Origin: Candidatus Thorarchaeota archaeon | GTDB taxonomy: Archaea > Asgardarchaeota > Thorarchaeia > Thorarchaeales > Thorarchaeaceae | Assembly: GCA_029858305.1 (NCBI GenBank) | Contig: JAOUFI010000002.1 | Span: forward strand, 21,778-85,777 | Direction of reading: 5' to 3' | DNA: 64,000 bases | In this document: positions 14,624 to 60,100 of the stretch, one piece after another | Numbering within the stretch: the first letter of the stretch is position 1 | How the letters are laid out: each line of letters starts with the position of its first letter | Position numbers and translations under genes: made by a program | Notes under the pieces: generated by a model | Told to the model about the DNA's origin: nothing | Databases searched by the model: none | The model's input: the letters and a program-made list of their open reading frames with translations, nothing else

Positions 14624-15769
14624 TTAAACCGTCTTCTTCGAGATAATCAAGTTTGGACCATCAATTTTGACGGGCATCTCAGGAGGCAAATCTAGAAGCC
14701 AATCCTCTAGCTCTTCAGGACTCTTGAACCGAAGTAGAATTCCCAATCTATCGAGTGGCAGGGTCTCATAACGGGTCATGATTTTCTTCATCTGAACCAT
14801 TCGGAACGCTTCCAGTTCTGCTTTGGCTTCTTCCGCTAACTCCTTTGTTTTATCAAACCACGGACTATCACGTTCGAACTCCCATATTTCAACGAGCCCC
14901 TCCATCGAACCTGTAACGACATATCTCTCATCAGGGGAAACAACCAACGCATGAACATTCTCAGTGTGTGTAACATCAGCTATGAGCACACCGCCGCGGA
15001 GAACCCAAACTCGGACTGTACCATCTGATGAACCAGTAATAAAATGCTGACCATCATTCGTAATGTGAATCGAGAGAATTGGAGCTCGATGACCTGTCAT
15101 AGTTTTGAGTAGCGTGCCGGTTTCAAGATCCCACAGGTACACAGTGCCATCCTGATCACCTGTGAGAATATAGCGAGAATCAGCAGTCATAGACAAAGCT
15201 GTCACATGACCTTTATGCCCCTTAAGGGTTCTAAGGAGTACACCCAGCTCGAAGTCCCAGATCCAGGCGATACCAGGATCTCTGTTACCTGGCACTCGTT
15301 TGCTCCCTGAAATTAAGTACCGTCCATCAGGACTGACAAGCATCGAATATATGCCGCGTTCATGATCTGATGTGCGAAGAAGAATCCCTCGATCAACATC
15401 CCAGTATCTTGCTAGTCCATCATCTCCTCCAGTGACAATATACCTCTGATCAGGACTGATAGCTATTGCTGTGACATGAACAGAGTTTGGCGCGAGCGAT
15501 CTGATTAACTCATGATTCTCCAAATCCCAGATCTTAACAGCGAGGTCCTTGTCAGCAATGGAAACAAGACGTTTTCCATCGGGCATCACAGCAAGGCTGT
15601 ATACAGGCCCGTTATGGCCTAGGAATTTATGAATCTCTTTTCCTGATGCAAAATCCCAAAGACGAATACTTGTATCCTGACCACCCGATATTATTGTCTG
15701 ACCATCTGGCGTTATAGCTAAAGACCAAACCGTGAACTCGTGCCCTTCCATTTGACAACTAGGTGTCAT
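14624..15769 (-). CDS. Seven-bladed WD40 repeat protein with a non-WD C-terminal tail of about 90 aa
   Basis: GH...[WD] units recur about every 42 aa: GHEFTVWSLAITPDG...IRLWD, GHNGPVYSLAVMPDG...VKIWD, and further units up to VRVW and VEIWE. ATG 15769 is preferred over the track TTG 15781. Confidence 0.85.
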   Translation of the reverse strand: MTPSCQMEGHEFTVWSLAITPDGQTIISGGQDTSIRLWDFASGKEIHKFLGHNGPVYSLAVMPDGKRLVSIADKDLAVKIWDLENHELIRSLAPNSVHVTAIAISPDQRYIVTGGDDGLARYWDVDRGILLRTSDHERGIYSMLVSPDGRYLISGSKRVPGNRDPGIAWIWDFELGVLLRTLKGHKGHVTALSMTADSRYILTGDQDGTVYLWDLETGTLLKTMTGHRAPILSIHITNDGQHFITGSSDGTVRVWVLRGGVLIADVTHTENVHALVVSPDERYVVTGSMEGLVEIWEFERDSPWFDKTKELAEEAKAELEAFRMVQMKKIMTRYETLPLDRLGILLRFKSPEELEDWLLDLPPEMPVKIDGPNLIISKKTV

Positions 15770-15860
15770 CTCATTAACCAAATATATTCTCCCTCAGCGC
15801 AGCTTGTGACCTTCTTAATAGAATGAATGAACAAAAGTTTGTCGTTTCCTCGGAGGATAT

Positions 15861-21517: not shown

Positions 21518-22180
21518 ATGGTAGAAACAACGAAGAGATTGCGAAAGCTCTCATTCATCTGTGGGATTCTCTCTTCGCTTCTGTATTTCTGTGCTGATAT
21601 ACTCGGAGGCATGATTTGGGGTAACTATGATTTTACAACTCAATATATTAGTGAGCTAAGTGCCATCGATGCTTCTTCAAGATCATTCGTTGTTTCGTTG
21701 TATATCTTGTATAATATTATTGTAATCCCATTTGCATTAGGAGTATTGAGATTTGCTGGCAGAAAACGAGTTCTGCGCATAACTGGAGGTATGCTTATTG
21801 GATACATAGCCACTGGCTTGGCAGGATTATTCTTCCCAATGGATCCCAGTGGGACCGCAACAACCTTTACCAACATTATGCACCAGATTTTCGCTGGTGT
21901 GATTGTTTTCTTCATTTTGCTATCACTAGGGTTTGGAGCTGCTGCATTCGCAACGTGGTTCCGCTACTATTCGATTGGAATTATTCTAGTATACCTCGTA
22001 CTGGGGGCTTTGCCCTTCTTGAGTGTTGTCCAATTTGAAGCTGGTCAGCCAATACCCTGGGTCGGGCTTGTGGAACGCATGATGGTCTATGGCTATGTGC
22101 TATGGGTGTCAGTACTATCCCTTGTCCTCATGCGTATGGTAAGGGACGAAACTCAATTGACAGCAGCAATATCCAATTAA
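21518..22180 (+). CDS. Polytopic membrane protein (possibly DUF998-like)
   Basis: About 6 hydrophobic spans. ISELSAIDASSR follows TM1. It starts 35 nt after the hydrolase gene. Confidence 0.6.
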   Translation: MVETTKRLRKLSFICGILSSLLYFCADILGGMIWGNYDFTTQYISELSAIDASSRSFVVSLYILYNIIVIPFALGVLRFAGRKRVLRITGGMLIGYIATGLAGLFFPMDPSGTATTFTNIMHQIFAGVIVFFILLSLGFGAAAFATWFRYYSIGIILVYLVLGALPFLSVVQFEAGQPIPWVGLVERMMVYGYVLWVSVLSLVLMRMVRDETQLTAAISN

Positions 22181-22326: not shown

Positions 22327-23430
22327 ATGAAGAATTTTAGAGTTGTCTTCTTGACTTCGCTATTAGTCACACTCCTTTTGAATGGAATTATTGGAAGTGT
22401 TGCGAGTACTACATTAAATCAAAGCGTAGAACTCAAAGAAATAGGACAATTGGATACCAATGGGTGGGCTGCTAATGTACAGGTGCAAGATAATATTGCA
22501 TATGTTTCTGATACAATAACTGGCCTGCACATCATCAATATTTCTAATCCTCAAAATCCAACTGAGTTAGGGCAGTATAATGAGGATGTCGCCGAGCTTC
22601 ATGAAATGCTAGTTGATGGAAACCTAGTGTATCTCGCAGATTACACTTATGGTTTCAAAATCCTCAATATTTCTGATCCCAAGAATCCTACACTTGAGAG
22701 TTATTTCCACGATGGGGGAGAAGTTGGTAGATTCGAGATTGCTGGAAACCTCGTCTTCATAGTTGATTTTGTTTCGGGACTGGAAATTATCAACATCAGT
22801 GATCTTACGAATCTTACAGAACTTGTTCAGTACAATACAGACATCAATTACATGTACAATATTGAAATAAACAATGATTTGGCTTATGTTTCAAATTTCA
22901 TTTCTAGCACTGAATCAAAAATTAAAATCCTAAATATTTCGGATATATACTCTATTGATGAAATAGCAGAGTACACAATTGCTGGCGAACCTTTTACAAT
23001 CGAATTCACTGGAGATATTGCCTATTCAGTGTGTTCGTTTGGTGGTGTAAAAATTTTCAACATTAGCAATCCACTTTCTTTGCACGAATTGGGTAGTTAT
23101 GATGATGGTGGAAATGCTGTTGCAATAGATTTCTATGAAGGATATGCGATTATCGCTGATCGTGATGATGGGGTGGAAGTTCTTGATGTTTCTACTCCTA
23201 CCGCACCAATTGAAATTGCTGGTTATCTCGATGGAGGAAGTGCGGCAGGAGTTCATGTCGTTGGCAACCTGATATATGTGGCTGATGGAGAAAATGGTCT
23301 TGAAATCCTTCAAATCGAAATCAACACAACAGGTACAACTACACCAGACATAACAAGCATCCTCTTAATTGTGAGTGCAGCGGGAATCATTGTGATTATT
23401 GTAGTAGTAGTGAAAAGGAGAGAGAGTTGA
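22327..23430 (+). CDS. Secreted, membrane-anchored LVIVD-repeat beta-propeller protein
   Basis: It has an N-terminal signal/TM and a C-terminal TM followed by KRRES. There are about 7 repeats of the pattern AYVSDTITGLHIINISNPQNPTELGQY / VYLADYTYGFKILNISDPKNP / AIIADRDDGVEVLDVSTPTAP. Confidence 0.75.
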   Translation: MKNFRVVFLTSLLVTLLLNGIIGSVASTTLNQSVELKEIGQLDTNGWAANVQVQDNIAYVSDTITGLHIINISNPQNPTELGQYNEDVAELHEMLVDGNLVYLADYTYGFKILNISDPKNPTLESYFHDGGEVGRFEIAGNLVFIVDFVSGLEIINISDLTNLTELVQYNTDINYMYNIEINNDLAYVSNFISSTESKIKILNISDIYSIDEIAEYTIAGEPFTIEFTGDIAYSVCSFGGVKIFNISNPLSLHELGSYDDGGNAVAIDFYEGYAIIADRDDGVEVLDVSTPTAPIEIAGYLDGGSAAGVHVVGNLIYVADGENGLEILQIEINTTGTTTPDITSILLIVSAAGIIVIIVVVVKRRES

Positions 23431-33746: not shown

Positions 33747-33814
33747 CTATTGACAAAACGCAGGTTTCGATAGAAGTATATGTGATGAGAGAGATTGTCG
33801 AAGAACAAGGGGCG

Positions 33815-34387
33815 ATGTCTGTGAACAAGAAACGTGTCTTCGTAGGGATTACTGGTGCTAGTGGAGCAATTTACGGAGTCAGATTAGTTAGAGCATTAAA
33901 ATCAGAAGGACATGAAGTTCATCTAGTTGTAAGTAAATGGGGAGCTGAAACCCTAAAGTATGAGCTTGATATTGATGCTGATACATTAGGGCACGAAGTA
34001 GATAAATTCTATAATGAACAAGATCTAGCAGCAGGACCAGCTAGCGGCAGCTACCCTCTCGATGCAGTTGTTGTAATTCCATGTTCAATGAAGACACTAG
34101 CAGGAATCGCTCATGGGTATGCAGATAATTTGATTGCTCGTGCCGCTGATTGCGCTCTAAAGGAACGTCGAAAACTGATACTCGTTCCCAGAGAAACTCC
34201 CTTGAACCTAGTTCACATTCAGAATATGAAATCAGTGACGGAAGCAGGAGCAATACTAATTCCTGCAAGTCCTGCATTTTGGCATAAACCAAAGAGTATC
34301 GAAGAACTAGTTGATTCGGTTGTCGACAGAGTTCTATCTCATTTGACTGCTCGCAGGGATTCTGCTGCAACATGGACAGGAGAATGA
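33815..34387 (+). CDS. ubiX: Flavin prenyltransferase UbiX/Pad1 family
   Basis: KRVFVGITGASGAIYGVRLVRAL, VVIPCSMKTLAGIAHG, and the LILVPRETPL pattern. ATG 33815 is preferred over the track GTG 33782. Confidence 0.9.
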   Translation: MSVNKKRVFVGITGASGAIYGVRLVRALKSEGHEVHLVVSKWGAETLKYELDIDADTLGHEVDKFYNEQDLAAGPASGSYPLDAVVVIPCSMKTLAGIAHGYADNLIARAADCALKERRKLILVPRETPLNLVHIQNMKSVTEAGAILIPASPAFWHKPKSIEELVDSVVDRVLSHLTARRDSAATWTGE

Positions 34388-34396
34388 GCTCTTCAG

Positions 34397-36244
34397 TTAT
34401 CCCCAATGCAGCGGTACTCCACAGTGCTCACAGACAATTGTTTCACCAGGTAAAGCTCGCTTGATAAGCCCAGCTCCACAATGTGGGCAAGCAATTTTCT
34501 TTGGTGCAGTATCGTCGGTTTTTGTTTGAATCCTTAGGAGAACCTCACGTAGATTCTCGCGCATCTCTGCCAGCATGAGCTCCAATTTTGTTTCATTATT
34601 GCTAGCAACCGTGATTCTGATTACAAGATTCTCCTTTGATACTGAGCCGACAACAACAAACTCATCACCGACAAGTGCCTTTCCGTAGTACCATACCTCA
34701 AAACCGGTTTTAGAATCTGCTAGCTCATCGATAAAGAGGACATTGTGTTGCTCAATGATATTCTTTACAATTTCCAGCATCTCAGCGGGGTCAGCATTTG
34801 CATCCATCTGATATTCACATGCATGTTTGGTTTGAAGCGTCGAATCCATTAGAGCTTGAATATCTGAGAGCGTTTTTGTTAGAAGATAGGCATCACGTGC
34901 AGCAGAGGCATGTGCCAATGGAACAGATACAACTGATTCACCATGTTTGTTACATGAAAGCTGTACATCTGCACTTTCAGCCATTTCTTTGATTTGAATT
35001 AGATCGATGGGATTATGGCATTTATGGCATTCAAAGAGTTGCATATAGGTTCTTGAGAGTGTTTCTGGATGAGCAGTAGTAGAGAGATAGCGGGTGCTCC
35101 CATGACCGTTACGACATTCAATTTTTAATTCAATGGTGTTTTCTTTGACTTTTGAATCCCTAATTAGAATCGGTGCAGAGCATTTAGTGCACTTGAGACT
35201 CTCTTCAATGGTTGACTCTCGATCAATTTCAGATTCTCTAGTTTCAAGATGTTTATAGATATCAGGTTTGATTCCTTTGCGCATTTTATTATGCAGTGGG
35301 CAGACAAGCTCAAGTTCAACATTGGTACCGTTTACTTTCTTTCCCACGATTTCCGTAAGGAGGTCGCAATCATTGCACTTCATGATTCCACCCACAATCG
35401 CGTCAATTGCTTCCTCGTCAAGGTCCGTCGGTTGATTCATCTCGATGGAATGACCGTTTGGACAAATACATTTCAATTTGTACTTGTTCTTATCCAAATC
35501 GATGGCCCGAATTGAAAGCTCGTTATTACATTGAGTGCATTTGAGCATCGACCTCACAATAGTGCCCTCAGATAGAGCCTCAGTAATTTTCTCAATCATC
35601 CACGCGTGTTTTGCGGGCATCTCTTTCTTTGTCCTACCATGTGCAGGACACGACATCTCTACACGAGCCTTGTCACCCTTTACGGAAACATCAAGAACTT
35701 GACACGGTAAACCGCATTGCTCACAATGAATGAGCCGTTTGAAGACAGTTTTAAGAATTGAAGGATCAGCCTCAGTAGGCGCATAACGAATCTCTTTATG
35801 CCCATTTGGACAGCGATACTTGAACTCCATAATCCCCTTTTTATCGTCTATTGATTGCGTTGAGAGGATTTGTTTACAACGAGGACAAGTGAGCGAATCG
35901 AGAATTGATTTTGCACTATTTACAGTACCTTGGATATCTGTTATGGCGCTGTGATAGAATGATGGATTCTTTTTCTTCAACGGTCCATGAATTGGACACA
36001 GAAACATGTACTCAACTTCGTGTCTACCCAAATCTGTGTGCACTAGAGACATTGTAGAACCACACACAACGCATGTGAATAGACCCTTGTAAATTTCGGG
36101 AGCCATGCTATCTACTTGATACCGTGCAACGTCTCTCTTGCCTTTGTGACCGTTGAAACATTGACAATACAGCCGCACCGTGCTACCACGCATCTCGCTT
36201 CCGAGAATAGAGAAAGGTTCCTTACATTTCTTGCAAACGAACAC
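34397..36244 (-). CDS. Multi-zinc-ribbon protein: eight Cys3-His ribbons (4 x A/B super-repeat), an alpha/beta domain and a terminal CxxC..CxxC ribbon
   Basis: Units: CKKC..CQCFNGH; CVVC..CPIHG; CPRC..CPNGH; CEQC..CPAHG; CTQC..CPNGH; CNDC..CPLHN; CTKC..CRNGH; CHKC..CNKHG; terminal CPHCG..CEHCG. GTG 36244 gives MFVCKKC, matching the paralog's GTG-encoded MFSCKKC. Confidence 0.75.
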   Translation of the reverse strand: MFVCKKCKEPFSILGSEMRGSTVRLYCQCFNGHKGKRDVARYQVDSMAPEIYKGLFTCVVCGSTMSLVHTDLGRHEVEYMFLCPIHGPLKKKNPSFYHSAITDIQGTVNSAKSILDSLTCPRCKQILSTQSIDDKKGIMEFKYRCPNGHKEIRYAPTEADPSILKTVFKRLIHCEQCGLPCQVLDVSVKGDKARVEMSCPAHGRTKKEMPAKHAWMIEKITEALSEGTIVRSMLKCTQCNNELSIRAIDLDKNKYKLKCICPNGHSIEMNQPTDLDEEAIDAIVGGIMKCNDCDLLTEIVGKKVNGTNVELELVCPLHNKMRKGIKPDIYKHLETRESEIDRESTIEESLKCTKCSAPILIRDSKVKENTIELKIECRNGHGSTRYLSTTAHPETLSRTYMQLFECHKCHNPIDLIQIKEMAESADVQLSCNKHGESVVSVPLAHASAARDAYLLTKTLSDIQALMDSTLQTKHACEYQMDANADPAEMLEIVKNIIEQHNVLFIDELADSKTGFEVWYYGKALVGDEFVVVGSVSKENLVIRITVASNNETKLELMLAEMRENLREVLLRIQTKTDDTAPKKIACPHCGAGLIKRALPGETIVCEHCGVPLHWG

Positions 36245-36328
36245 ATCTATCAACTACCTTGGCGCAGCACGTAGTCAATCTCATAAATTCCTCGAGCTTC
36301 CTAATATGTACTCCGCATACGAGACTAA

Positions 36329-38605
36329 TCATTGTAGATATAATGCAATGGTAAGAGAATGAGTGCAATACTTACAACGAATTGGCAGACGTTTTCCCAG
36401 ATCTTCCACTTGATCTGTTTCTAGGGGTGCTCCACATCGTAGACACACCCATGAATCCATTGTGTCAGCAAGCTCATCAATGGTTGTAGGTAGCATTGAT
36501 ACATCCTCACCAAGGGCTTCTACTTTTACAACTGAGTGACGACCATTTTCTGGACCAGATATTAGGAGAACAACCGCTATCTTTCGCTTTGTATACTTGC
36601 CTTCAGCATAGCCACGGATGGTTCCTATGAATTCACCCGAAATTACATGCTCCTCAGTATCCACAACATGGAAATTCTTCGTAGGCAATATTTTCTCAGC
36701 CTTCGTGAATAAGACCTTAGCATTCCAATCAAGAGTCTGCTCTTGCTGAGTCTTTTCAAGACTGGATAGAACAAGGTTAAACTCTGCAGATGTTTTCTTA
36801 GAAGGGGTCAAAAGATCGCAGACTGAACGAATCAGATATGGCTCTACACTCATTGTGTGTAACTGATCGAGAAAATCAATGTATGAAACTGTTGCAACAA
36901 CTTTTCCCTGTACACAATCCTTTGTTGGGTAGAACGTGAACTGAGGGCTTCTAAAGCCGCCTACTTCGATTCTAGATATTGTTTTCACACTCTCTCCAGC
37001 CAGCTCCATACAGTCTACCGGATATGCAACAATACTCACTGTTACATTTGTGATAACATATCCACTATTATTGGCTACTTTGACCTTGTAATCAAATTTA
37101 CCTCCAACAATCTCACAACCACGCATAGCCTTAACTCCGCCATCTGGAGAATCAATGGATTCACCCTCCGCTTCTAGAGTTTCAGGTGGTTTGGGTTCAC
37201 TCACTTCAACTGGAGGTTTTGCCTTGTCAGCCAGCATTTCTGCATATGCATTCTGCATAGCTTTGGCATGGTCAGGAGGAATATCAAATACGTACTTTCC
37301 GTGAATTGAGCACAATTGAACAACCCGGTCCTCACGACCACCAGGTTCCACATATACTAAATCTAATGGCTCATAACACTCAGGACATTGGAAGAAACGC
37401 TTGTAAAGATCGACAAGAGTCTCTAGCTCCAATTCAGGTTTAAACAGTCTCTTACTTCTATGACTGTTTCTACACTCTACATCAAACTCTACGAGTCCTC
37501 GACGTTCTTCAACATCTCTTAGTGTGAGCGGCATACTACATTTTTCGCAGCTTAGACTTCTTACAATAGATGGGAGGCGGTCAATTAAGTGTTCATGGTC
37601 AGAAATAATATTGAAGATGGAAGGGGTTGCTTCTCTTTGCATCACACCATGAATTGGACAGACAATCTGGAATGCAACTTTCTTTGCACTCTTCCTCTTA
37701 CTCAGAATATGTGTTAAGTGTCCACAATCATCGCATGTGAGTATAGCAGCTGTTATCCGGTTAGCAACTGCATCATTCCATGTGAGTGGAAGTATCCTCT
37801 CTGTAGTGACCTTATTGCCAGGGCAAATGCACTTCAACTTGTAGCCAGATTTATCATCCTCAATACTTCTTATTGCCAGAGGTTGTCTGCACTCATTTGT
37901 AGTGAGAGTGGCTCGAAGTACTGCATCCTCAGGTATCTCAGAAATTGATTCTCTAAGTGGACCTACAAATTGTGTAGGAATGTCCTTCTTAGTAACACCA
38001 TGAACTGGGCATGCGACATATACACGTGCTGAATTACCTCGTTCTTCTAAATCAGCTATATGTCCAGGAAGTCCACATTTATCGCAATGAACTACTCGCT
38101 GCAGAATTCTCTTTAGAAGAGATGTTTCCAAGTCACTTGGGAGGTACCTACTTGCCTTGTGATTATTTGCACATCTTACCTCGATCTCTATTATTCCTCG
38201 ACGTTGCTCTACCTCGCTGATAGCATATACAAACCCACACTGTGGACATCTGAAAGAATCAATGATGGCTCTTGGACTATCAACCTCTGCAGCCGCAAGC
38301 TGTACAGTTGAAAGAAACTCTCTTGGAAATTCACGTTTCTCCATCCCATGACGCGGGCAGAGAAAGATTCCCTCAGTCTTTGATCCTTGGATAATAGTAT
38401 CAACAAGTGTCATGTTCGAGCCACACTCTGTGCATACAAACATCTTCTTGAAAATCTCTGAACCAACATCGCTTATCTGATGCTCGGCGAGTCGCCTTGC
38501 ACTTTTATGACCATTCAGACATTGTGTTTCAAGAGTCAGGATGTGGTCTTGCATCTCAGCGTTTCGTACGTACAGGGGTTCTTGGCATTTCTTGCATGAG
38601 AACAC
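36329..38605 (-). CDS. Multi-zinc-ribbon protein, paralog of 34397..36244, with an added Ig-like beta-sandwich and alpha/beta domain before the terminal ribbon
   Basis: It has the same eight-unit A/B layout. Unit 5 is degenerate: TTNEC...CICPGNK has lost one Cys and the His. The C-terminal part reads GGKFDYKVKVANNSGYVITNVTVSIV... and the terminal ribbon is CLRCG...CKYC. Confidence 0.75.
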   Translation of the reverse strand: MFSCKKCQEPLYVRNAEMQDHILTLETQCLNGHKSARRLAEHQISDVGSEIFKKMFVCTECGSNMTLVDTIIQGSKTEGIFLCPRHGMEKREFPREFLSTVQLAAAEVDSPRAIIDSFRCPQCGFVYAISEVEQRRGIIEIEVRCANNHKASRYLPSDLETSLLKRILQRVVHCDKCGLPGHIADLEERGNSARVYVACPVHGVTKKDIPTQFVGPLRESISEIPEDAVLRATLTTNECRQPLAIRSIEDDKSGYKLKCICPGNKVTTERILPLTWNDAVANRITAAILTCDDCGHLTHILSKRKSAKKVAFQIVCPIHGVMQREATPSIFNIISDHEHLIDRLPSIVRSLSCEKCSMPLTLRDVEERRGLVEFDVECRNSHRSKRLFKPELELETLVDLYKRFFQCPECYEPLDLVYVEPGGREDRVVQLCSIHGKYVFDIPPDHAKAMQNAYAEMLADKAKPPVEVSEPKPPETLEAEGESIDSPDGGVKAMRGCEIVGGKFDYKVKVANNSGYVITNVTVSIVAYPVDCMELAGESVKTISRIEVGGFRSPQFTFYPTKDCVQGKVVATVSYIDFLDQLHTMSVEPYLIRSVCDLLTPSKKTSAEFNLVLSSLEKTQQEQTLDWNAKVLFTKAEKILPTKNFHVVDTEEHVISGEFIGTIRGYAEGKYTKRKIAVVLLISGPENGRHSVVKVEALGEDVSMLPTTIDELADTMDSWVCLRCGAPLETDQVEDLGKRLPIRCKYCTHSLTIALYLQ

Positions 38606-39259: not shown

Positions 39260-40534
39260 TCATTTACTTCCTGTAGCATCTACGCTTTCCAGCACTTTAT
39301 CCGCTGATTTCTTTAATTTTGAACGATAACCTCGTGTCGTGTAGACACGCACAGGTTTCAAAATTCTGGAGAAACTCCTTGCCATCGGGCTTAGGTCACT
39401 CAGTTTCCAAAACTCGTATCCACTTGATCCACGTTCGAATAAAGCAATCCCATCAAGATCGAACTTTCCAGGATAGAAAGTGACAGATGCGCGATCTGGA
39501 AAATCGATGTAAACATTATGAGAATCAATATCCGCATCCTCAGCAATCTCTTGTTCGATAGAAAAGAGACCATCAGGAGTTGACAACTTATTCAGAAATG
39601 CAGGATCGGAGATAGCACGTGTGCTGACCAATTTTATCAGATAACGTTTGTTGAAATCAGAAAAGATTCGATTTGCAGTTTTGAGTTCTTCACTTTCCTC
39701 AGAGTCGACACGAAGAAGTCTGGTTAGAAAAGTGAGGTCATCATTTTTGAAGAATTCAAGAGTGTTGTCCAGAGGTGAAGGGAAAAGCTGTGAACCAGCT
39801 TCATCAAGAACTCGCAATAACATCAATTCAGCTGCACGAACAGTCTTATGGAAGTATACAGCATCAAACATGTTGACAGCTGCAGACAAGTATGATTCTA
39901 GGGTGAATAGAGAACCACGTTCTACAGCAATCTTGTTCTTTGTAATGCGTGTTGCATCAAATAGTCTGTGAAATTCAAGCTGTGCATAATCCACCCCTGC
40001 AAAATATGAGTCTCGTTCGAGGTCGTCAATGAGTTCTGGATTGATAGGACAGTTCTTGATGTCAAGCCTAACACTTTTAATAGGCACACCACGTTCAATC
40101 ACATCTTGTATCTCTGATTTTGAAAATCCGTGATTTTCTATTATTGTTCCTATTTCCGTTTTACCAAGAATAGCCTTAGTAATCTTGAGGGGATTGGAAC
40201 CTCGCATAGTCAAATATTCTTCCATAACATTTGACCATGGACCATTTGCGAGCATTAGTAAATAGGACGCCAACCGACCTTTCTGTATCTCCTCGATAGT
40301 AGCTCCAAGATATTCTAAGAAAATCCTGGTCATATGTAGAAAACCAAGAGTTCTACCGAGGAGTGCAATGTCCGCCCCGGGATAGACTAATGAAAGACCA
40401 GCGGGACCCTTGATATACCTAAGTCTCTGAGATATCCGATGATCAATAAGCTGTTTCTCTACGTCTGAGAGACTTATGTAACCATGAATGGGATCCTTGA
40501 TTTGGAGGACAGAGGGAAAATCTGTAATAGGCAT
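39260..40534 (-). CDS. COG1078/SAMHD1-like HD-domain homolog lacking the His and His-Asp metal ligands (predicted inactive)
   Basis: The family scaffold is present: IKDPIHGYISL, QRLRYIKG, VYPGA, RDSYFAGVDY, VYFHKTVRAAELML. However, HxRFEHSLG reads DIALLGRTLG, and LLHDIGHGPFSH reads LLMLANGPWSN. Confidence 0.7.
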   Translation of the reverse strand: MPITDFPSVLQIKDPIHGYISLSDVEKQLIDHRISQRLRYIKGPAGLSLVYPGADIALLGRTLGFLHMTRIFLEYLGATIEEIQKGRLASYLLMLANGPWSNVMEEYLTMRGSNPLKITKAILGKTEIGTIIENHGFSKSEIQDVIERGVPIKSVRLDIKNCPINPELIDDLERDSYFAGVDYAQLEFHRLFDATRITKNKIAVERGSLFTLESYLSAAVNMFDAVYFHKTVRAAELMLLRVLDEAGSQLFPSPLDNTLEFFKNDDLTFLTRLLRVDSEESEELKTANRIFSDFNKRYLIKLVSTRAISDPAFLNKLSTPDGLFSIEQEIAEDADIDSHNVYIDFPDRASVTFYPGKFDLDGIALFERGSSGYEFWKLSDLSPMARSFSRILKPVRVYTTRGYRSKLKKSADKVLESVDATGSK

Positions 40535-50975: not shown

Positions 50976-51122
50976 AATACATTCTCGATTTATCGACCGG
51001 ATACAATCCACAGCATGTTGATATATGTAATTTACATAGAAAATTGTATAGGATGCTACAATGAAGGATAGCTCTTTTACTTGAGTTGTTTGTAGTTGAC
51101 GAAAAGTAAGAGATTTTCAAAA

Positions 51123-54100
51123 ATGGGGCTTAGACGGATATTCATCATTGGTATTTTGATTCTAAGCATAGGCTTTGCTTCACACAGTACAACAACTGAT
51201 TTTTTAACATCTAATTTTGAACCTCAAGTAGCACATCCCTCTGATACTCATACATCTTCATCTGTTGAAGGAATAGGAAATAGTCTTCTTTCAGCTGCGG
51301 GATATTCCCGTAATATCAATAATTTACAATTTTCACTAGCGAACAGCTACTCAGACAGTGAGTCACATAATCAAATCATAGATTTATCATCCTACCATAT
51401 TGATGGTTGGTCATTGTATGAGGTTGAAATTTCTACTACAAGAATTGTAGCATTAGCAGAACGAGAGATAATTGGATCCAGAACTAGTCCAGGTCACATC
51501 TTATTCAACATATCAAAATATGATACTGGATATTATGACCAGTTGACACAGGGATTCTATGGTATGAGTCATGATGGTAAACTAGAAAATATCTCACTCT
51601 TGTATACTTCATCATCATATGATCCCCTGTATCATCATTATGCATATTTCGACCTTAGATCAGATTATTCAGATGGGGCTACAAATATGGTGTCCTCTGT
51701 CCCATTAGGAAATGTAGGACTTACTCCGACCTGGGCAAGTGTAACAGAATCCACAACTCTAGATGCAGACACAATATATTATGCAGTAATGAACGGGACC
51801 AGACTTATAGAGGTCTTCGGTACATTCCCAATAATTCAATGGTATTATGAGGATTCAGAAGGTACCTATGAAACGCGACGCCATACTACAGAATATATCC
51901 CCTGGAGTTCTAGTAGACCATATGAGGCTCTGCTTAACTATACTTATATTCCGTGGAATACAACAAGTAATTCTGCTCTTGAATTCTCGGATCCATCTAT
52001 CATAGATTTGCGAGGAAATTCATCATTATTGGCAGGTTCTCAATGGAAATTCGATTCTCTTACTAATGTTTCACAAATACAATTCTCATCGAATCAATCT
52101 ATATCAGTAGAATACGATCTTACACTTAGATACAAGCAGTCTGTCACATCCTCCACATCTTGGTATGCAGATTCTTCTAATTCGGTCATTTTATGGAATA
52201 TAACAACATCTATCGATTATCCAGAACTAGCTGGTTCTCAAGATAGAAATCTAACTGTGTTGGTTCCAAGTGACTGGACTGCAAGTCATTTATTTAACAT
52301 CACTTACCCAACTCAATATTTCGACCATTTCACACAAATAGAATCCAGCGTAAATTGCTTTGGTCTGGCGGATGAAACTTGGATATTGGAATGTACATCT
52401 CCAAATTATATGAAATCGTTATCGATGTTTGATACGAGTGATGATAGTATTATCACTGATAAAGTAAGTATATCTGTCACAATGGATATCAATGCAACAA
52501 TTGAAGACCAATCATCAAATCCCGCAGCAAATGGTAATGCGCATCTTGTAGTGTACTATCAAGCCGCAGAAGAATATTCTGATGATTACTCAGTAACATC
52601 AGGAACATCGCATTACCAATGGGACATCTCAACAGATTCATCATCTAATGGTCTACACACGATAGATGTGTATTGGTCAAATGGAACAGAAGTAGGATAT
52701 CAATCAAATGATGTTGTAGTATTCTATGAAACAACACTCGTAGCAGATGAATATACCATCAATGACTACACTGATGACTCCTTTTACATTGGAATTGACT
52801 ACAACCAAGTATTTCCAGCAGCAGGGATTGACTCATCAAGTGCAGATGTCACCTATTCATTCGGATCTGTGGTGAACCAGTCTCTCACTGACCAGAGTAA
52901 TGGAAGATGGGATGCAACTGTTTCAACAGCTAGTATGTCACCAGGACTACACACATTGACTATCTATGCTGAAGGATATGCACTCGAAAATCGGAGTATA
53001 ACCATAGATGTAGATCTTATTCATGATACCTTACCCCTGACAATTATTTATTCCAACATTTCTTATGTTGAAACTACAGAGCTTTCTGTTGCATACGAAA
53101 GAGTCGGAAACATACCAATTCCTGATGCACATGTCGAAGTGACAATTGGAACAACTACATGGCAGCTAAATTTTGATGAGGGCAGCGGTACCTACAAGAT
53201 GATTTTCAATGGAACCGATATTGATCCAGGTTTTGGGATCCATACCCTCACTATTAATGCATCTCTAGCAGGGTATAAATCGCAAAGCTATACTAAGACA
53301 CTCATTATTCATGAAGAGAGTACCATACTCAATATAGAATGGTCAGGGAGTACTGACATCACCTATGTTGAGAGCGTGACCCTCTATGTCGACTACCAGA
53401 TGTCCAATACAACTCCAATCTATCCCGCTACTGTTGAGGTCACCATTGATACTGACATCTATGTGATGAACTGGAATGGTGGAACCGGGAGATACTGGTA
53501 TCAATTCAATGGCAGTGATTTACTTCCAGGATTTGGATTTCATAATTTGATAATTAAAGCCTCTAAATTTGGATATGCCTATCGGAGTGACCTCACACAA
53601 ACACTGAATATAACTGAAGAGCCAACAACACTGGTTCTGTCTTGGTCCAATGGGAATGAAATATCATATGTGACCTCTACAATGTTGATTGCAAAATACA
53701 ATCAATCAAACGGATCTCCATTAATTAATGCAACAGTTAGCGTTACAATAGATACAGAATCATGGCTAATGGTGTGGAATACTGATACATTTGCCTACGA
53801 GTTGACCTTCAATGGAACCGATTCAATACCGGGTTTTGGGACATTCGATGTATCAGTTCTTGCATCACTTTATGGTTTTGAATCAAAACCCGATGATAAC
53901 GAAACACTCTATATACACGAGGAGAGCACCTTATTCAACATAGAATGGTCAGGGAGTACTAATATCACCTATGTTGAGAGTGTGACCCTCTATATCGATT
54001 ACCAAATGTCCAATGCAACTCCAATCTATCCCGCTATAGTTGAAGTCATCATTGATACCGACATCTATGTGATGAACTGGAATGGTGGAACCGGGAGATA

Positions 54101-57100
54101 CTGGTACCAATTCAATGGCAGTGATTTACTTCCAGGATTTGGATTTCATAATTTGATAATTGAAGCCTCCAAATTTGGATATCAAAATTATTCCAATATT
54201 TTCCAGACATTGAATATTACTGAAGAACCCACAACACTTGTTTTGTCTTGGTCAAATACCAATAGCATTACCTATGTCACCTCTACAACGCTAATTGCAA
54301 AATACAATCAATCAAACGGATCTCCAGTAATTAATGCAACAGTTAGTGTTACAATAGATACAGAATCATGGCTAATGGTGTGGAATACTGATACATTTGT
54401 GTACGAGTTGACCTTCAATGGAACTGATTCAATACCGGGTTTTGGGTCATTTAACATATCAGTAATTGCGTCATTATATGGCTTTGAATTAAAGCCCGAT
54501 GACAACGAAACACTCTTTGTTGATTTAGAACCAACCTCAATCACAATCGCTTGGTCAAATACTGGAAGCATTACCTACATAGATCAAACTACTCTCATTG
54601 TATCCTACAGAATGAACAATAATTCAGTAATTCCAATTGATGCTGTGGTTAATGTAACAATTGATGGATTTCCAACGTGGGATCTTGATTGGGATTGGGA
54701 TTATGGAACTGAAACATATCGTCTTGTCTTTAATGGTACAGACATACCCCCAGGTTTCGGCACGCACAATCTAACCATTAGAATTGGTAAGTATGGCTAC
54801 GTGAACCACGTGAATACCACCCTAACTCTCACTATAGATTTAGTACCAACAATCCATGAAGTATATTGGTCAAACACTAATTCCATTACATACATAGAAT
54901 CAACAACTCTTACAGTCAATTATACAATGACCAATGGAACACCCGTTACTGATGCAATAGTGAATGTCTCAACAGTTGCGGGATTCTGGCTGATGAAGTG
55001 GAATAATGATACATTTATGTATGAGTTGGCTTTCAATGGAACCGATTCAATACCAGGATTTGGAACTCATATTCTGACCATACAAATAAGAAAGGTTGGT
55101 TATTCGGATCCTGGAAATCTCACAGAAACCTTGATTCTGGATTTGGAACCAACAAGTATGAATATGGCTTGGCTGGATTCACCAACCATCTCATTCCTCG
55201 AATCGACAACTCTTGTTGTGTACTATAGAATGAGTAATACTTCTCCGATTTTAGATGCTACAGTTATAGCTACAATCGACGGTATCCAGTACGAACTCGT
55301 ATTGCATCCAAGTGGCTCATATAGATACACCTTCAGTGGAACAGATAATCTTCCGGGAATTGGAACACATTTACTGAAAATTGATGCGAACAGAACTGGA
55401 TTTGACTCTAAATCTGATGAAGGCGAGGTCTTGATAATTAATGAAGAATCAACATTCATTGATATCATATGGTTAGATAACAATACCATAACTTTTGTTG
55501 AAACATCAATTCTAGTCATAAATTATACAATGACTAATGGTTCTCCGATTGCAGGAGCGACAGTTAATGCCACAATAGATGGATTTCCAGCTTGGGACCT
55601 TGTATGGGATATTGATACACAAACATATCGCTTAACATTCAATGGAACAGATGTCCCGCCTGGATTGGGATTCCACAATATCACAATCAGAGCTGACAAA
55701 TTCGGATACGAAAGTCGGAATGGTTTGACCAACATTACTTTAGATAGAGAACAATCATACCTCGTTGTAAGTTGGATTCCTGATAATGATATTTCATACA
55801 TGACTAGTTCTATTCTCGTGGTTAGTTATAGGATGACGAACTCTTCGCCAATTTCTGAAGCTACTGTGAATGTTTCAATTGGAGAGGGTTCATGGCTGAT
55901 GAAATGGAGTGTTGCTAATCAAGATTACAGACTTCAGATCAATGGAACCGATATACCACCTGATTTAGGAAACTATACTATGACTATTGAGGCTACAATG
56001 TTTGGATTCTATGCAGCATACAATCTAACAGCTCAGGTTATACTTCGAGAAGAACCAACAAGTCTAGATGTGCATTGGGCAAATGGAATAAACAATCCAA
56101 GTTTCCTTTCTTACACATATCTCATAGCAGATTACCTTTATGGAGATTCAACACCTATTGTGGATGCCATTCTGAATGTCTCAATAAATTCATTCATTTT
56201 TCGAATGGGATGGAATGCTAGTGGTTTCTATCAATTGAAAATCAATGGTTCGGACACCTATCTAGGTGTTGGGAATAATTCAATCACAATAAGTGCTGAG
56301 AAATATGGGTATGTCACTAAGATGAATACTACTAAAGTTGTGATTCCTGTGGTCCCAACCAAACTTACTCTTGAATGGGAATTCTCTGATACGATAACCT
56401 ATGTAGAATATACTACACTTCATGCATACTACGTAATGTACAATGATTCTTTGATTTCTGAAGCATCTGTCAATGTGACGATAAATGGAATGACACTGCC
56501 TATGATTTGGAGTTCTTCTAGTAACTCATATGAACGAACATTTTACGGGTCTGACAGTTCGTTAGGTATCACATCATTTCCAATTCTAGTCGAAGCAGCC
56601 ATGATTGATTTCCAGAGTCTATCAAATTCTGATGAGATATTAACTATTCAAACTGAACCTACTACACTTGCGATATCTTGGATTGGTGGAGACAATATCA
56701 CTTACTTTCAACAGACCACACTATCAGTACAATTCGTCATGTCTAATGGATCACCAATTTCAATTGGAGTTCTTAATGCGACTATAGGAGGAGTCCTTTT
56801 CGACCTTAATTGGAATATCATTAGTGAGGCATACGAAGTGGTAATCTATGGAGATGATGCCCGATTGGATTACTTGGACTATGATGTCTTGATTAACGCA
56901 TCAGCATACGGGTTTGTCGCTTCAGTAGATACTTACCAATACTTCACTATCAGACTAGAAGATACATATCTTGTCATTGATTGGGTTCCGAGTAACACGA
57001 TATCTTACTTGGACTCAACAGTATTCAGAATCTTTTACCGATATGCATCCAATCATTCTCCTGTTTTAGGAGCAGTTGTTAGTGCTTCAACATGGGTAGC

Positions 57101-60100
57101 GAATTATAACAGCAGTTCTGGAGCTTATGAGATAATATTCACAGGCTCTGATTTTCCAACTCCAATACCGGGTACACACTCTCTTGATGTTGTTGCCTCA
57201 AAATCAAACCATCAATCTCACACTAATGATCTTGAAGAAATCACCATCACTAAGGAAAGCACATACATCGAGTCTTGGTGGCTCAATGATAATAATACAA
57301 TAACTTTCGTTGAGAATACGACTATCTATATCAACTACTCAATTGCTGCTTCAGGCGTTTCAATTGTGGATGCTAACGTTACTGTCAGAATTGGCACAAC
57401 CATATGGGATACACTCTATAATCCAATTCTGGAACTTTACTATTTCACATTTATAGGAGATATGGATCCACCAGGACTTGGTGTCCACGGGTTGTTTATT
57501 TCAGCATCTTATAGTTTTCATGAAGGATATCAATCTGCAGTAGATAACTCGCAAATCTTAGAAATTGAATCAGCATCTGTATCAATTGATAGCTATTGGA
57601 TTGTTAGTGGTACTATAACATATCTACAACAGACAACACTTGTAGTAAACTATACTTTATTGGATGGAGAAGCCATTCCACTAGCACTAGTCAATGTAAC
57701 AATTGGTCAAACATTCTGGTATGCACAATGGGATGAATTGAGTGAAACCTATCGGTTGACTTTCAATGGGTCAGATTCTCTACCAGGTTTGGGATTCCAC
57801 GAACTCAGTATCCGGGCAAATCGAACTGGATTTGACTCACTTACTGATAGCTCTATGACTTTGAATATCATTGAAGAATCAACCACTACGAGTGTTCTTT
57901 GGAGTAATTCTGATAGCATAACATACTTTGAGCATACGTATCTATTTGTCAGGTACAGGATGAGCAATGGTTCAGACATTCTTGGTGCTAGCGTCAATGC
58001 CACAATAGGTTCTACAAAATGGATCTTAATTTGGAATAGCACGCAAGGAGCTTATGGAGTCTTATTCAAAGGATGGGATAGCCCTCCGGGACTAGGTAGT
58101 CATTCAATCCTGATTAACGCAACAAAACATGGTTTCGCATACATTGAGAATTCAGTTGAGGTTCTGACATTACTAAAGGACCCAACTACAATACAAGTTT
58201 CATGGTCAAATGGAAATAACATCACATATGTTGAAACTACAACGATAATTGTACAATATAAAATGAGTAACGGTACCCCAATATCCACAGGAACTGTTAT
58301 TGCAACAATTGGACTAGATAGTTGGGAACTTCTGTGGAATGTATCATCACAGGTATATTACTTCACATTTTATGGGAATATGAGTCCACCAGGTCTTGAT
58401 ACCTTCTCAGTTCAGATTGATGCATCTAGTGCCATTTTTGCATCCCAATCGACTTCGGAATTTCTTACATTGAGAGAGGAAGGAACAGTTACTATTGTAT
58501 CATGGACGACTGCAACATTCGATTGGACCCAGAATGTTGTAATTGGAATTGAATACCGAGATAGCTATGGTAGATTGGTCAGTGACGCAACTCAGAAGAC
58601 GATATCTGTAGATGGTTCAGAATTTACCCTATCAGGGACAAATGGAACCTATTGGTATTCATTCAACAATTCATTCGGTTTAGGGCATCACAATGTTGTC
58701 ATGAATATCAGTAAGTTTGGATATGAATTTGCTGTGAATGCAACAGTTAGCTTTGATATTATTGAAGCCTCAACGAGTCTTGAACTAGTCTGGAGTATGA
58801 CTACAATTGACTACTTGGGGCAGATCACTCTGACAGTAGATTACACATATACGGGTACAGGTGATTCGATTCCAGTAGGTCTAGTCAATGTGAATATCAC
58901 AATTGATGGAATCACGACTCTCAATTTGACACCAATTGGAGACTATTGGACCATTACATTGAATGGAGATTTCTTAGATTTAGGAACGCATAGTGTCGTT
59001 ATACTTGCACAAGCCTATGGCTACAACTTCGCTGAGGATAGTGACAGTCTTACAGTTAATGAGGTCTCTACAGGTACATCTGGAATTTCGTGGTCACCTT
59101 CAGACCTTACAATAGAATTCACTGGTTTCTTACAACTTGTTGTGGATTATACATACGCTAGCGGAGATGTTCCAGATACAGCAACAGTGAATGTCACGAT
59201 TGATGGTCATTTCTATGAACTTGATTATCTAGTCGGTGCTTGGCGAGTGACAATTCCTGGTAGCATCCTAGGTGTTGATGTCTTTGATGCTCATATCAGT
59301 GCATGGCTCCACGGATATGAGTTACAGACCTTTACTACTTCAGGAATTAATGTCACACTTGCAGCTAATTCATTCTATGTGACTTGGGATCCATCAGATC
59401 TAACACCAACCTACATTGATACGGTAACACTTACTGTTGCCTATATACAGGACTTTGAACCAATAGAAGACGCCACTGTTCAACTATTCATCAATGGAAC
59501 TCGCTATGAGCTAATCTATAGCTCTATTGATGAGAGATGGTTCCTCAGTATTGATGCATCAGATATTGATTTGGGAGTATGGAATGTTACTGTCACAGCA
59601 AACAAAACAGGATATGCAGAAGGGTTCCAAATGGATCTCCTCACAGTAGTTGAAGCTCCAACAATTCTTGATATTCAAGATACTGGAGATACTCTCTATT
59701 TCGATGAAACAACTACAATAGACATCTACTACCAATTAACAAATACAAGTGCAGTTCCCGGGGCAATAATATCATTCACTCTTGATGGTATTGAACAGAC
59801 AATAACTTGGAATGGTTACCATTGGACAACTACTCTCGATGGGACAGAGCTAGGAGTTGGTGTCTATACTTACAATATCATAACGTCAGTATATGGATAT
59901 GAGACTCAGATGGACACATTTGTGATTACTATACTAAGCGTCCCAACTTCAATGATATCAGATTCGAGTATTGTGATGTATGCTCGTGACTTTGTTTCAT
60001 TCAGGTTTACATACATTGATGAAAGGACTAGCACCTCAATTGATGCAAGTGAATTTAACATCACATGGATCGAATACTACAACATAGTGACTCTACCGAA

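Follow-up and report, generated by a model that had tools for sequence, protein, structure and literature searches.

Two paralogous Thorarchaeota proteins that join zinc-ribbon arrays to a predicted adaptin/COPI appendage-like region

Analysis of a 64,000-nt stretch of a Candidatus Thorarchaeota genome (assembly GCA_029858305.1, contig JAOUFI010000002.1, forward-strand positions 21,778 to 85,777; hereafter, the window) revealed two neighbouring genes, A and B (Table 1), encoding members of a real, strongly conserved and lineage-specific protein family whose architecture is unreported. Both proteins carry four super-repeats of about 116 aa, each made of one type-A and one type-B Cys3-His zinc ribbon. 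In structure models, the C-terminus of A is a bipartite domain resembling the appendages, or ears, of adaptins and of the coat protein complex I (COPI), followed by a C4 zinc ribbon, and B is predicted to keep the platform half of this domain plus the ribbon. The most likely role of A and B is that of scaffolds for protein docking, ahead of enzymatic activity and DNA binding.

Open reading frames (ORFs) for both genes were found on the minus strand, exactly where a first-pass annotation of this DNA, based on reading the letters, had placed two adjacent genes of the same orientation, and both open with the string GTG-TTC-nnn-TGC-AAG-AAA-TG that it had pointed out. Gene B has an alternative start at an in-frame upstream TTG (34397..36253, 618 aa), with the GTG being favoured because the homologs of this gene begin with MFTCKKC. 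The spacer of 75 nt given earlier for the pair is right as the distance to this TTG but not as the distance to the GTG, which is 84 nt.

The motif CxxC-x(17-24)-C-x(2,3)-H was detected eight times in B (first Cys at aa 4, 58, 120, 174, 236, 290, 352, and 406) and seven times in A (aa 4, 58, 120, 174, 291, 353, and 407). In 20000 composition-preserving shuffles of each protein, its mean count was 0.02-0.04, with a maximum of 3, which rules out the chance clustering of Cys residues as the source of the ribbons. The spacing between ribbons alternates between 54 and 62 aa in both proteins, and the second knuckles alternate as well, being C-x-N-[GNS]-H in type A and C-[PSN]-x-H-[GN] in type B; thus, motifs and spacing bear out the four super-repeats with strict alternation of ribbon types that had been proposed. 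A hidden Markov model of the super-repeat also recovered four domains in A, with E values from 1e-22 to 1e-28 that are partly circular. In the AlphaFold model of B, every unit opens with a CxxC knuckle, which two strands connect to the C-x(2,3)-H knuckle; a third strand comes next, and one or two helices close the unit. With two knuckles, a three-stranded sheet and four conserved ligands, the units are modelled as zinc ribbons in their own right, and metal binding is predicted for them. A and B contain 32 Cys each, corresponding to 8-9 predicted metal sites per protein.

The motif missing from A belongs to unit 5 (...TTNEC...CICPGNK), in which the first Cys and the His are gone, as had been noticed in the first-pass annotation. 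This unit is degenerate in 16 of 16 A-type sequences; therefore, its loss is an ancient feature and not a local decay. The Cys/His columns of the seven intact ribbons were 100% conserved among these A-type sequences, as were the cysteines of the terminal ribbon, and the ribbon Cys/His columns of 63 B-type sequences were 97-100% conserved, the gaps observed at aa 4 and 7 corresponding to N-terminally truncated gene calls in homologs. This invariance extends over 79 homologs with identities down to about 31%, so the ribbons are not fortuitous, and the same conservation rules out that A or B is a pseudogene or a decayed gene. In addition, type-A and type-B ribbons were homologous to each other (hhalign, 96.5%, E 8e-10). 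The genes are true paralogs, as had been proposed. Each super-repeat of A was closest to the super-repeat at the same position in B (34-39% identity, compared to 14-28% for the other pairs); therefore, the fourfold amplification preceded the duplication that gave rise to A and B. The orthologs of gene A correspond to proteins P0105-P0120 and P0121.

The C-terminus of A (aa 479-758) was modelled with AlphaFold from 44 sequences, giving a predicted local distance difference test score (pLDDT) of 92.2 and a predicted template modelling score (pTM) of 0.81, with low pLDDT at the first residues, on the hinge side. The model contains a sandwich, then a platform, the fold of which spans aa 617-717 approximately, and then the ribbon. 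The 14 best matches of this region in a Foldseek search against the PDB were all adaptin/COPI appendages. The best of them, COPI 9qpq_H, had an E value of 4.7e-11 and template modelling (TM) scores of 0.63/0.71 (query/target), with a root-mean-square deviation of 4.0 over 243 columns, and that to the AP2 alpha ear 1w80 an E value of 7.7e-10 (TM 0.51/0.56); the beta2 ear 1e42 (E 3.8e-09, TM 0.47/0.55) and gamma-COP 1pzd (E 5.0e-08, TM 0.42/0.43) were also among these 14. Lower matches included TRAP-beta, limited to the sandwich, and BBSome subunits. Sandwich and platform of the predicted model superposed jointly on the solved ears.

Protein B was modelled at full length with AlphaFold2 from a 60-sequence alignment (pLDDT 90.2, pTM 0.74). 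Its platform proper spans aa 472-573, with a beta-alpha-beta4-alpha arrangement in the model. For a chain of small domains totalling 615 aa, this pTM is high, which implies a fixed packing between units, and the array of B could be a rigid trunk, a shape read from the pTM by itself. Foldseek matches of this model included clathrin-adaptor/COPI appendages plus TBP-like folds (RnlA, phosphoglucomutase domain 4, and Flpp3), and its platform matched that of AP4-beta (2mj7) with a target TM-score (TMt) of 0.51. The platform of B was also related to the platform plus ribbon of A by profile comparison (hhalign, 81%, E 1.3e-5), and the search with the family profile (see below) supports this homology as well. 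Four phage baseplate proteins heading the PDB matches of full-length B were ignored due to their TM-score of 0.09 and low probability, and all matches of the same model to viral structures had TM-scores below 0.15. Our models thus agree with the earlier description of an additional Ig-like beta-sandwich in A, which is absent from the model of B, of an alpha/beta domain before the last ribbon common to both proteins, and of a terminal CxxC..CxxC ribbon in each of them.

A search for known families at the sequence level was carried out with Pfam and NCBIfam, and no match above curated cut-offs was detected for A, B, ten A orthologs, or 40 isolated two-ribbon modules. The two-ribbon module corresponds to no Pfam family and is a previously undescribed domain. 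Its commonest weak match was Zn_ribbon_recom (PF13408), found in 12 of the 40 modules at E <= 0.01 (best 1.8e-6); the gathering cut-off of this family, 25.3 bits, was missed by whole B (15.3) and by module 1 (20.9). Sequence and profile searches of the PDB with the whole family and with the two-ribbon module gave no significant match, the best being HypA (E 0.037). Several family assignments were considered and rejected: Trm112p, which reached 30 bits but in no single qualifying stretch; DUF7479, DmmA, and Sel_Asgard, with sub-threshold or composite matches; and zf_UBZ, Erv1/Alr, DUF723, and PSV_ORF131, scattered and marginal among A orthologs. The automatic names given to relatives by the Joint Genome Institute (JGI) were rejected too, as NCBIfam Elf1 scored 11.1 bits against a cut-off of 109, with Pfam Elf1 appearing at E >= 0.001 only, in two of the 40 modules, and the RPC12/RpoP profile was not reached above its cut-off. 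Regarding the C-terminal region, none of the Pfam ear profiles Alpha_adaptinC2, Alpha_adaptin_C, B2-adapt-app_C, and COP-gamma platform was listed for A at E <= 1, and the sole match to an ear profile was that of protein P0133 to Alpha_adaptinC2 (E 0.005). The HEAT-trunk family Adaptin_N was not matched in A, whose N-terminal region is the zinc-ribbon array. In consequence, the statement of the first-pass annotation that the architecture fits no characterised family stands for the ribbon array, with sub-threshold matches only, and no longer for the C-terminal part, for which AlphaFold and Foldseek point to an adaptin/COPI appendage-like domain.

A profile of the A and B family was searched exhaustively with HMMER against 1.84 billion cluster representatives, which yielded 154 proteins. 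The C-terminal module was found on its own in about 103 other representative proteins of Asgard archaea, 91 of them with the terminal C4 ribbon, and 57 of the 103 (about 55%) had at least one predicted transmembrane helix upstream of the module. The motifs SVCDLL, AEGKYT, and MLPTT are invariant in the module. Examples are P0140 (LVIVD propeller, transmembrane segment, RKRTKVRK, and then the ear-plus-ribbon module), P0145 (signal peptide, NosD beta-helix, transmembrane segment, RRRTR, module), and P0136 (CBM-like ectodomain, transmembrane segment, module). Following the positive-inside rule, the module is therefore cytoplasmic in these membrane-protein carriers. Soluble carriers include proteins with TPR (P0132) and LRR repeats (P0283, P0285); thus, the N-terminal partners of the module comprise LVIVD, NosD, CBM, TPR, and LRR domains. 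The sequence of P0130 (781 aa) reads as two tandem sandwich-platform-ribbon copies, and the module spans a similar 560-600 aa, approximately, in P0137 and P0206, where tandem copies are possible judging from the profile spans alone.

The two-ribbon module, in turn, appears without the C-terminal module in about 35 proteins, in one to three copies and often together with DZR-type ribbons, Pro-rich linkers, and PCI/winged-helix-like regions. Their source names are Helarchaeota, Lokiarchaeota, Ranarchaeia, and Heimdallarchaeota. A word-indexed search with the profile of this module returned five proteins only. In an alignment of 40 modules, positions C4, C7, C29, C58, C61, C83, and H86 were invariant. 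The Helarchaeota proteins P0131 and P0147 carry one two-ribbon module plus sandwich, platform, and ribbon, as a miniature of A. In the Helarchaeota sequence JBQSCM010000012.1 (L065:9344-11335), the gene of P0131 (444 aa) is located 64 bp downstream of a UbiX gene whose product is 38% identical to the UbiX encoded in the window. This adjacency, common to Helarchaeota and Thorarchaeota, suggests that P0131 is a positional counterpart of A and B and that the Thorarchaeota array is an internal amplification of the module, which occurs in one to three copies elsewhere in Asgard archaea. No recurring ESCRT (endosomal sorting complex required for transport), ubiquitin, or coat genes were found in the neighbourhoods of P0234, P0283, P0287, and P0147.

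With respect to distribution, a word-indexed search with B returned 144 relatives, all of them labelled "hypothetical protein" or with generic automatic names, which split into 615-aa orthologs (43-98% identity to B) and 758-aa A-type proteins (35-38%). Their source names are Thorarchaeota, Sifarchaeia, or Promethearchaeota, except for P0001. In NCBI, this protein, which is the nearest to B of all (98% identity), bears the label "Candidatus Odinarchaeota archaeon". The label is probably the result of a binning or taxonomy error, because the syntenic loci are all from Thorarchaeota, and so are practically all of the remaining relatives. A locus survey with one genome per GTDB species gave 59 loci, the neighbours of which were compared by tblastn. 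The loci with taxon names were from Thorarchaeota or Promethearchaeota, with "Hermodarchaeota" as the one exception; the family is thus Thorarchaeota-specific and resides in a conserved locus. The conserved order is HD_assoc_2, a small membrane protein, A, and B, with UbiX and DUF2070 on the opposite strand, followed by PadR and two ABC transporters. The tandem of A and B was present in about 24 loci, the window included, B was alone in about 11, and A was alone in about 15. In addition, in the complete chromosome CP070761, gene A occupies the canonical site, and B is found at a distance of 1.7 Mb. The tandem arrangement is therefore common without being obligatory, and the conservation of the pair across homologs, a question raised together with the pair, is not universal.

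In this part of the chromosome (CP070761.1, Thorarchaeota bin27, L039:3784-5854), the relocated gene B lies 146 bp downstream of a gene encoding an SPFH protein with a double Zn ribbon (Band_7_1, E 7e-21), and adjoins a divergent, free-standing gene of 314 aa with an ear-like sandwich-platform-ribbon organization. SPFH was absent from every other fetched locus searched and from the window. Among the window ORFs that were scanned for ESCRT-type families (those of at least 180 aa plus the 162-aa neighbour of gene A, with three short ORFs left out), neither Snf7 nor Vps4 families were detected, nor were they in the two further loci inspected for them, L001 and L002.

Regarding the neighbouring genes, nearly all Thorarchaeota loci have the HD_assoc_2 gene upstream of the ribbon genes. 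In the HD_assoc_2 protein, Pfam reports the HD-associated region only. Its N-terminal part shows VYPGADIALLGRTLGF at the position of the His/Asp metal ligands of dGTPase-like HD proteins, and it may be an inactive HD paralog, as judged by eye. The 162-aa protein, whose gene separates the HD gene from gene A in most Thorarchaeota loci, belongs to no Pfam family. By eye, its hydrophobic segments look like about four transmembrane helices; its C-terminal tail is rich in Lys and Glu. In other parts of the window, a 385-aa WD40 beta-propeller protein (14624..15781, minus strand) and a 367-aa protein with LVIVD repeats, a short copy (22327..23430, plus strand), were observed. LVIVD propellers are among the ectodomains that bear the ear-plus-ribbon tail in other Thorarchaeota proteins; outside A and B, no such module was found in the window. 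Finally, a single ORF of 3371 aa (51096..61211, plus strand) matches no Pfam family at E <= 1e-4 and is rich in Ser/Thr (22%). It has an N-terminal hydrophobic segment and a transmembrane-like segment near aa 3261, followed by RRKRR and a winged-helix-looking tail of about 90 aa, and its region has a lower GC content (0.38-0.40, compared to 0.42-0.45 in the window). The probable product of this ORF is a giant surface protein whose tail domain is cytoplasmic.

Table 1. Location of genes A and B, their predicted protein regions, and conserved neighbours in the window.
Feature	Residues	Position in window	Strand	Description
Gene A	758 aa	36329..38605	-	GTG start; 8-unit zinc-ribbon array, hinge, predicted appendage-like domain, C4 ribbon
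A array	1-455	37241..38605	-	Four super-repeats; first Cys at 236 lost
A unit 5	about 231-284	37754..37915	-	Degenerate ribbon; keeps C239, C259, C261
A hinge	about 456-490	37136..37240	-	Acidic Pro/Glu-rich linker, isoelectric point (pI) 4.4
A Ig-like beta-sandwich	about 491-601	36803..37135	-	AlphaFold fragment model, pLDDT 92; Foldseek
A platform subdomain	about 602-717	36455..36802	-	TBP-like beta-alpha-beta4-alpha; model and Foldseek
A terminal C4 zinc ribbon	718-758	36332..36454	-	C721, C724, C744, C747
Gene B	615 aa	34397..36244	-	From GTG; 8 intact ribbons, predicted platform domain, C4 ribbon
B array	1-455	34880..36244	-	Four super-repeats, eight intact Cys3-His ribbons
B linker helix and TBP-like platform	456-575	34520..34879	-	Without beta-sandwich
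B linker and terminal C4 ribbon	576-615	34400..34519	-	C586, C589, C605, C608
HD_assoc_2 protein		39260..40534	-	Conserved upstream neighbour; context only
Membrane protein	162 aa	38713..39201	-	Upstream neighbour; context only, without demonstrated link
UbiX-type flavoprotein		33782..34387	+	Conserved convergent neighbour; context only

As for function, we rate slightly better than even the chance that A and B are paralogous, cytoplasmic, non-enzymatic scaffold/adaptor proteins specific to Thorarchaeota, in which a rigid multi-zinc scaffold is combined with a protein-interaction hub. We infer zinc binding, a rod shape, and partner binding for both proteins: structural zinc sites would hold the ribbons together as a stiff, elongated trunk, and the ear-like module would be a docking hub for a common partner or for other copies of the module. 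With such a hub on a stiff trunk, A and B would link protein partners or keep them spaced, probably on the cytoplasmic side of the membrane, since many of the tails bearing the module reside there, and they could perhaps form part of a sorting or membrane-organising system. The layout of A, with trunk, hinge, and ear, would recall that of the large adaptor subunits as an analogy, without homology between the trunks. The modular scaffold already suggested in the first-pass annotation stays the best functional guess. Several results weigh against this interpretation. No Pfam appendage model was matched in 44 module-bearing proteins (E <= 0.01), and the likeness to ears is found at the fold level only. 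The neighbours HD_assoc_2, small membrane protein, UbiX, and DUF2070 point to no pathway, and no ESCRT-III, Vps4, ubiquitin, or coat gene was found among the scanned ORFs of the window. In addition, an obligate heterodimer of A and B is unlikely, given that A-only and B-only genomes are common, and the adjacency of B and SPFH occurs in one genome only.

A narrower form of the scaffold model, which we consider unlikely, is that A and B are multivalent receptors of ubiquitin or ubiquitin-like modifiers and functional analogues of ESCRT-0, with ribbons that bind tagged cargo and an ear that recruits ESCRT-type machinery. Asgard ESCRT-I/II-like proteins with three Zn ribbons have been reported, and appendage-domain proteins have been proposed as ESCRT-0 analogues (PMC10936438). 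Ribbon 3 of the A ortholog P0110 also touches the zf_UBZ cut-off (25.8 vs. 25.6 bits), the stand-alone two-ribbon proteins P0154 and P0147 have PCI-like matches, one at the Pfam cut-off and one below it, and the repeated C-terminal region of P0128 looks winged-helix-like by eye. However, the zf_UBZ match is single and marginal, contains no qualifying stretch, and is absent in nine of the ten A orthologs scanned, and no ubiquitin, E1/E2, or ESCRT gene was detected in the scanned window ORFs or in the conserved locus.

Distinctly unlikely is, in our opinion, a nucleic-acid-binding array, the "ruler" of the first-pass annotation, in which the ribbons would touch DNA or RNA at regular spacing, like many of those in transcription and translation factors. 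Zinc ribbons are generally known to bind nucleic acid often, DNA binding is possible for TBP-fold domains, and weak sub-threshold matches to Zn_ribbon_recom (the 12 modules mentioned above), Elf1, and the TFIIB ribbon were obtained, with "Elf1" and "RpoP" among the automatic JGI names. Against this, the arrays, of 455 aa each, are near neutral (pI 6.95 and net charge -1 in A; pI 8.26 and net charge +6 in B), the platform domains of both proteins are acidic, the Elf1 score remains at 11 bits against a cut-off of 109, and no nucleic-acid-processing genes were found among the neighbours. Moreover, the module attached to the array superposes on ears that bind proteins, and it is found mainly on the cytoplasmic tails of membrane proteins.

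A further interpretation, to which we give quite a small chance, is that A and B are the trunk-hinge-ear subunits of a lineage-specific zinc-ribbon membrane adaptor or proto-coat, whose ear-plus-ribbon modules would co-assemble with those on the cytoplasmic tails of dozens of surface proteins as a sub-membrane lattice that sorts or clusters membrane proteins. If true, this proto-coat would be an independent archaeal cargo adaptor built around the ear domain used by eukaryotic AP and COPI. Finally, a role in metal or redox handling, as a zinc store or buffer or as a thiol-redox sensor making functional use of the 32 cysteines and 8-9 predicted metal sites per protein, is highly improbable, as the weak matches to Erv1/Alr, the DVU_1557 redox family, and HypA, which fall well short of threshold, derive from the CxxC spacing alone, the sites sit in well-predicted three-stranded ribbons typical of structural zinc, and site 5 was lost in all A orthologs with the unit being kept, which argues for selection on the fold and not on the metal count.

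The scaffold/adaptor interpretation of A and B bears on how the toolkit of vesicle coats and adaptors arose. No closer relatives of eukaryotes than the Asgard archaea are known, and the family described here constitutes a well-defined, soluble, and highly conserved carrier of the archaeal ear domain, with confident structure models and a repeat trunk that should lend itself to expression and zinc loading. Given the presence of the module on many membrane-protein tails, the idea that the archaeal ear is a docking hub linking membrane proteins to cytoplasmic scaffolds is directly testable. Our analysis also adds a two-ribbon domain, hitherto undescribed, with representatives across the Asgard lineages.

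The archaeal appendage-like domain itself was already known. Makarova et al. (2024; PMC10936438) described archaeal "adaptin appendage-like regions" with an IG-like plus TBP fold (arCOG15284), which in some cases precede a Zn ribbon or are connected to GOLD by a transmembrane linker, and which in Asgard archaea can be combined with TPR, Vps28-C, or longin; the authors proposed that these proteins act with ESCRT in protein sorting and noted SPFH proteins with Zn ribbons in ESCRT-linked "Meth_adaptin" loci. Eme et al. (2023; PMC10307638) reported that the alpha- and beta2-appendage domains of Pfam can be detected in genomes of Asgard archaea. Zinc-ribbon arrays of Thorarchaeota are mentioned in neither of these papers, and full-text literature searches found no description of them; the fusion of the domain to a zinc-ribbon array is thus unreported in the literature searched. 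Compared by description, A shares with the arCOG15284 proteins the IG-like plus TBP-fold region with a Zn ribbon, and relatives of its module share with them the transmembrane linker or TPR. The group of B, SPFH-Zn-ribbon, and free ear-like genes in CP070761 recalls the "Meth_adaptin" loci, in a single genome. Unlike the arCOG15284 loci, that of A and B has no Vps4/ESCRT-III neighbourhood among the scanned ORFs.

Among the zinc-ribbon proteins, A and B share a module of about 105 aa with the two-ribbon proteins P0265 (Heimdallarchaeota), P0128 (Ranarchaeia), and P0131 and P0147 (Helarchaeota). They differ from the other Asgard two-ribbon proteins in having four modules instead of one to three, and many of these proteins end in DZR-type ribbons, Pro-rich linkers, or PCI/winged-helix-like regions and not in an ear. 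The CxxC knuckle followed by a long beta-hairpin is also a feature of Zn_ribbon_recom, from large serine recombinases; unlike it, the ribbons of A and B come without a recombinase domain, have His as the last ligand, and are arranged in tandem.

In comparison with the eukaryotic adaptors, the differences are that sequence similarity to the ear families of Pfam is undetectable in A and B, that their trunk is a zinc-ribbon array and not a HEAT/alpha-solenoid, that a C4 ribbon follows the platform, and that B lacks the sandwich. As in the ears of AP2 alpha/beta2 and COPI beta/gamma, the model of A presents an Ig-like sandwich and then a TBP-like platform, in the same order, with joint superposition on the solved structures at TM-scores of 0.5-0.7 and a Foldseek probability of 1.00; and as in the adaptor large subunits, though by analogy only, an acidic, Pro-rich hinge separates the repeat trunk from the ear.

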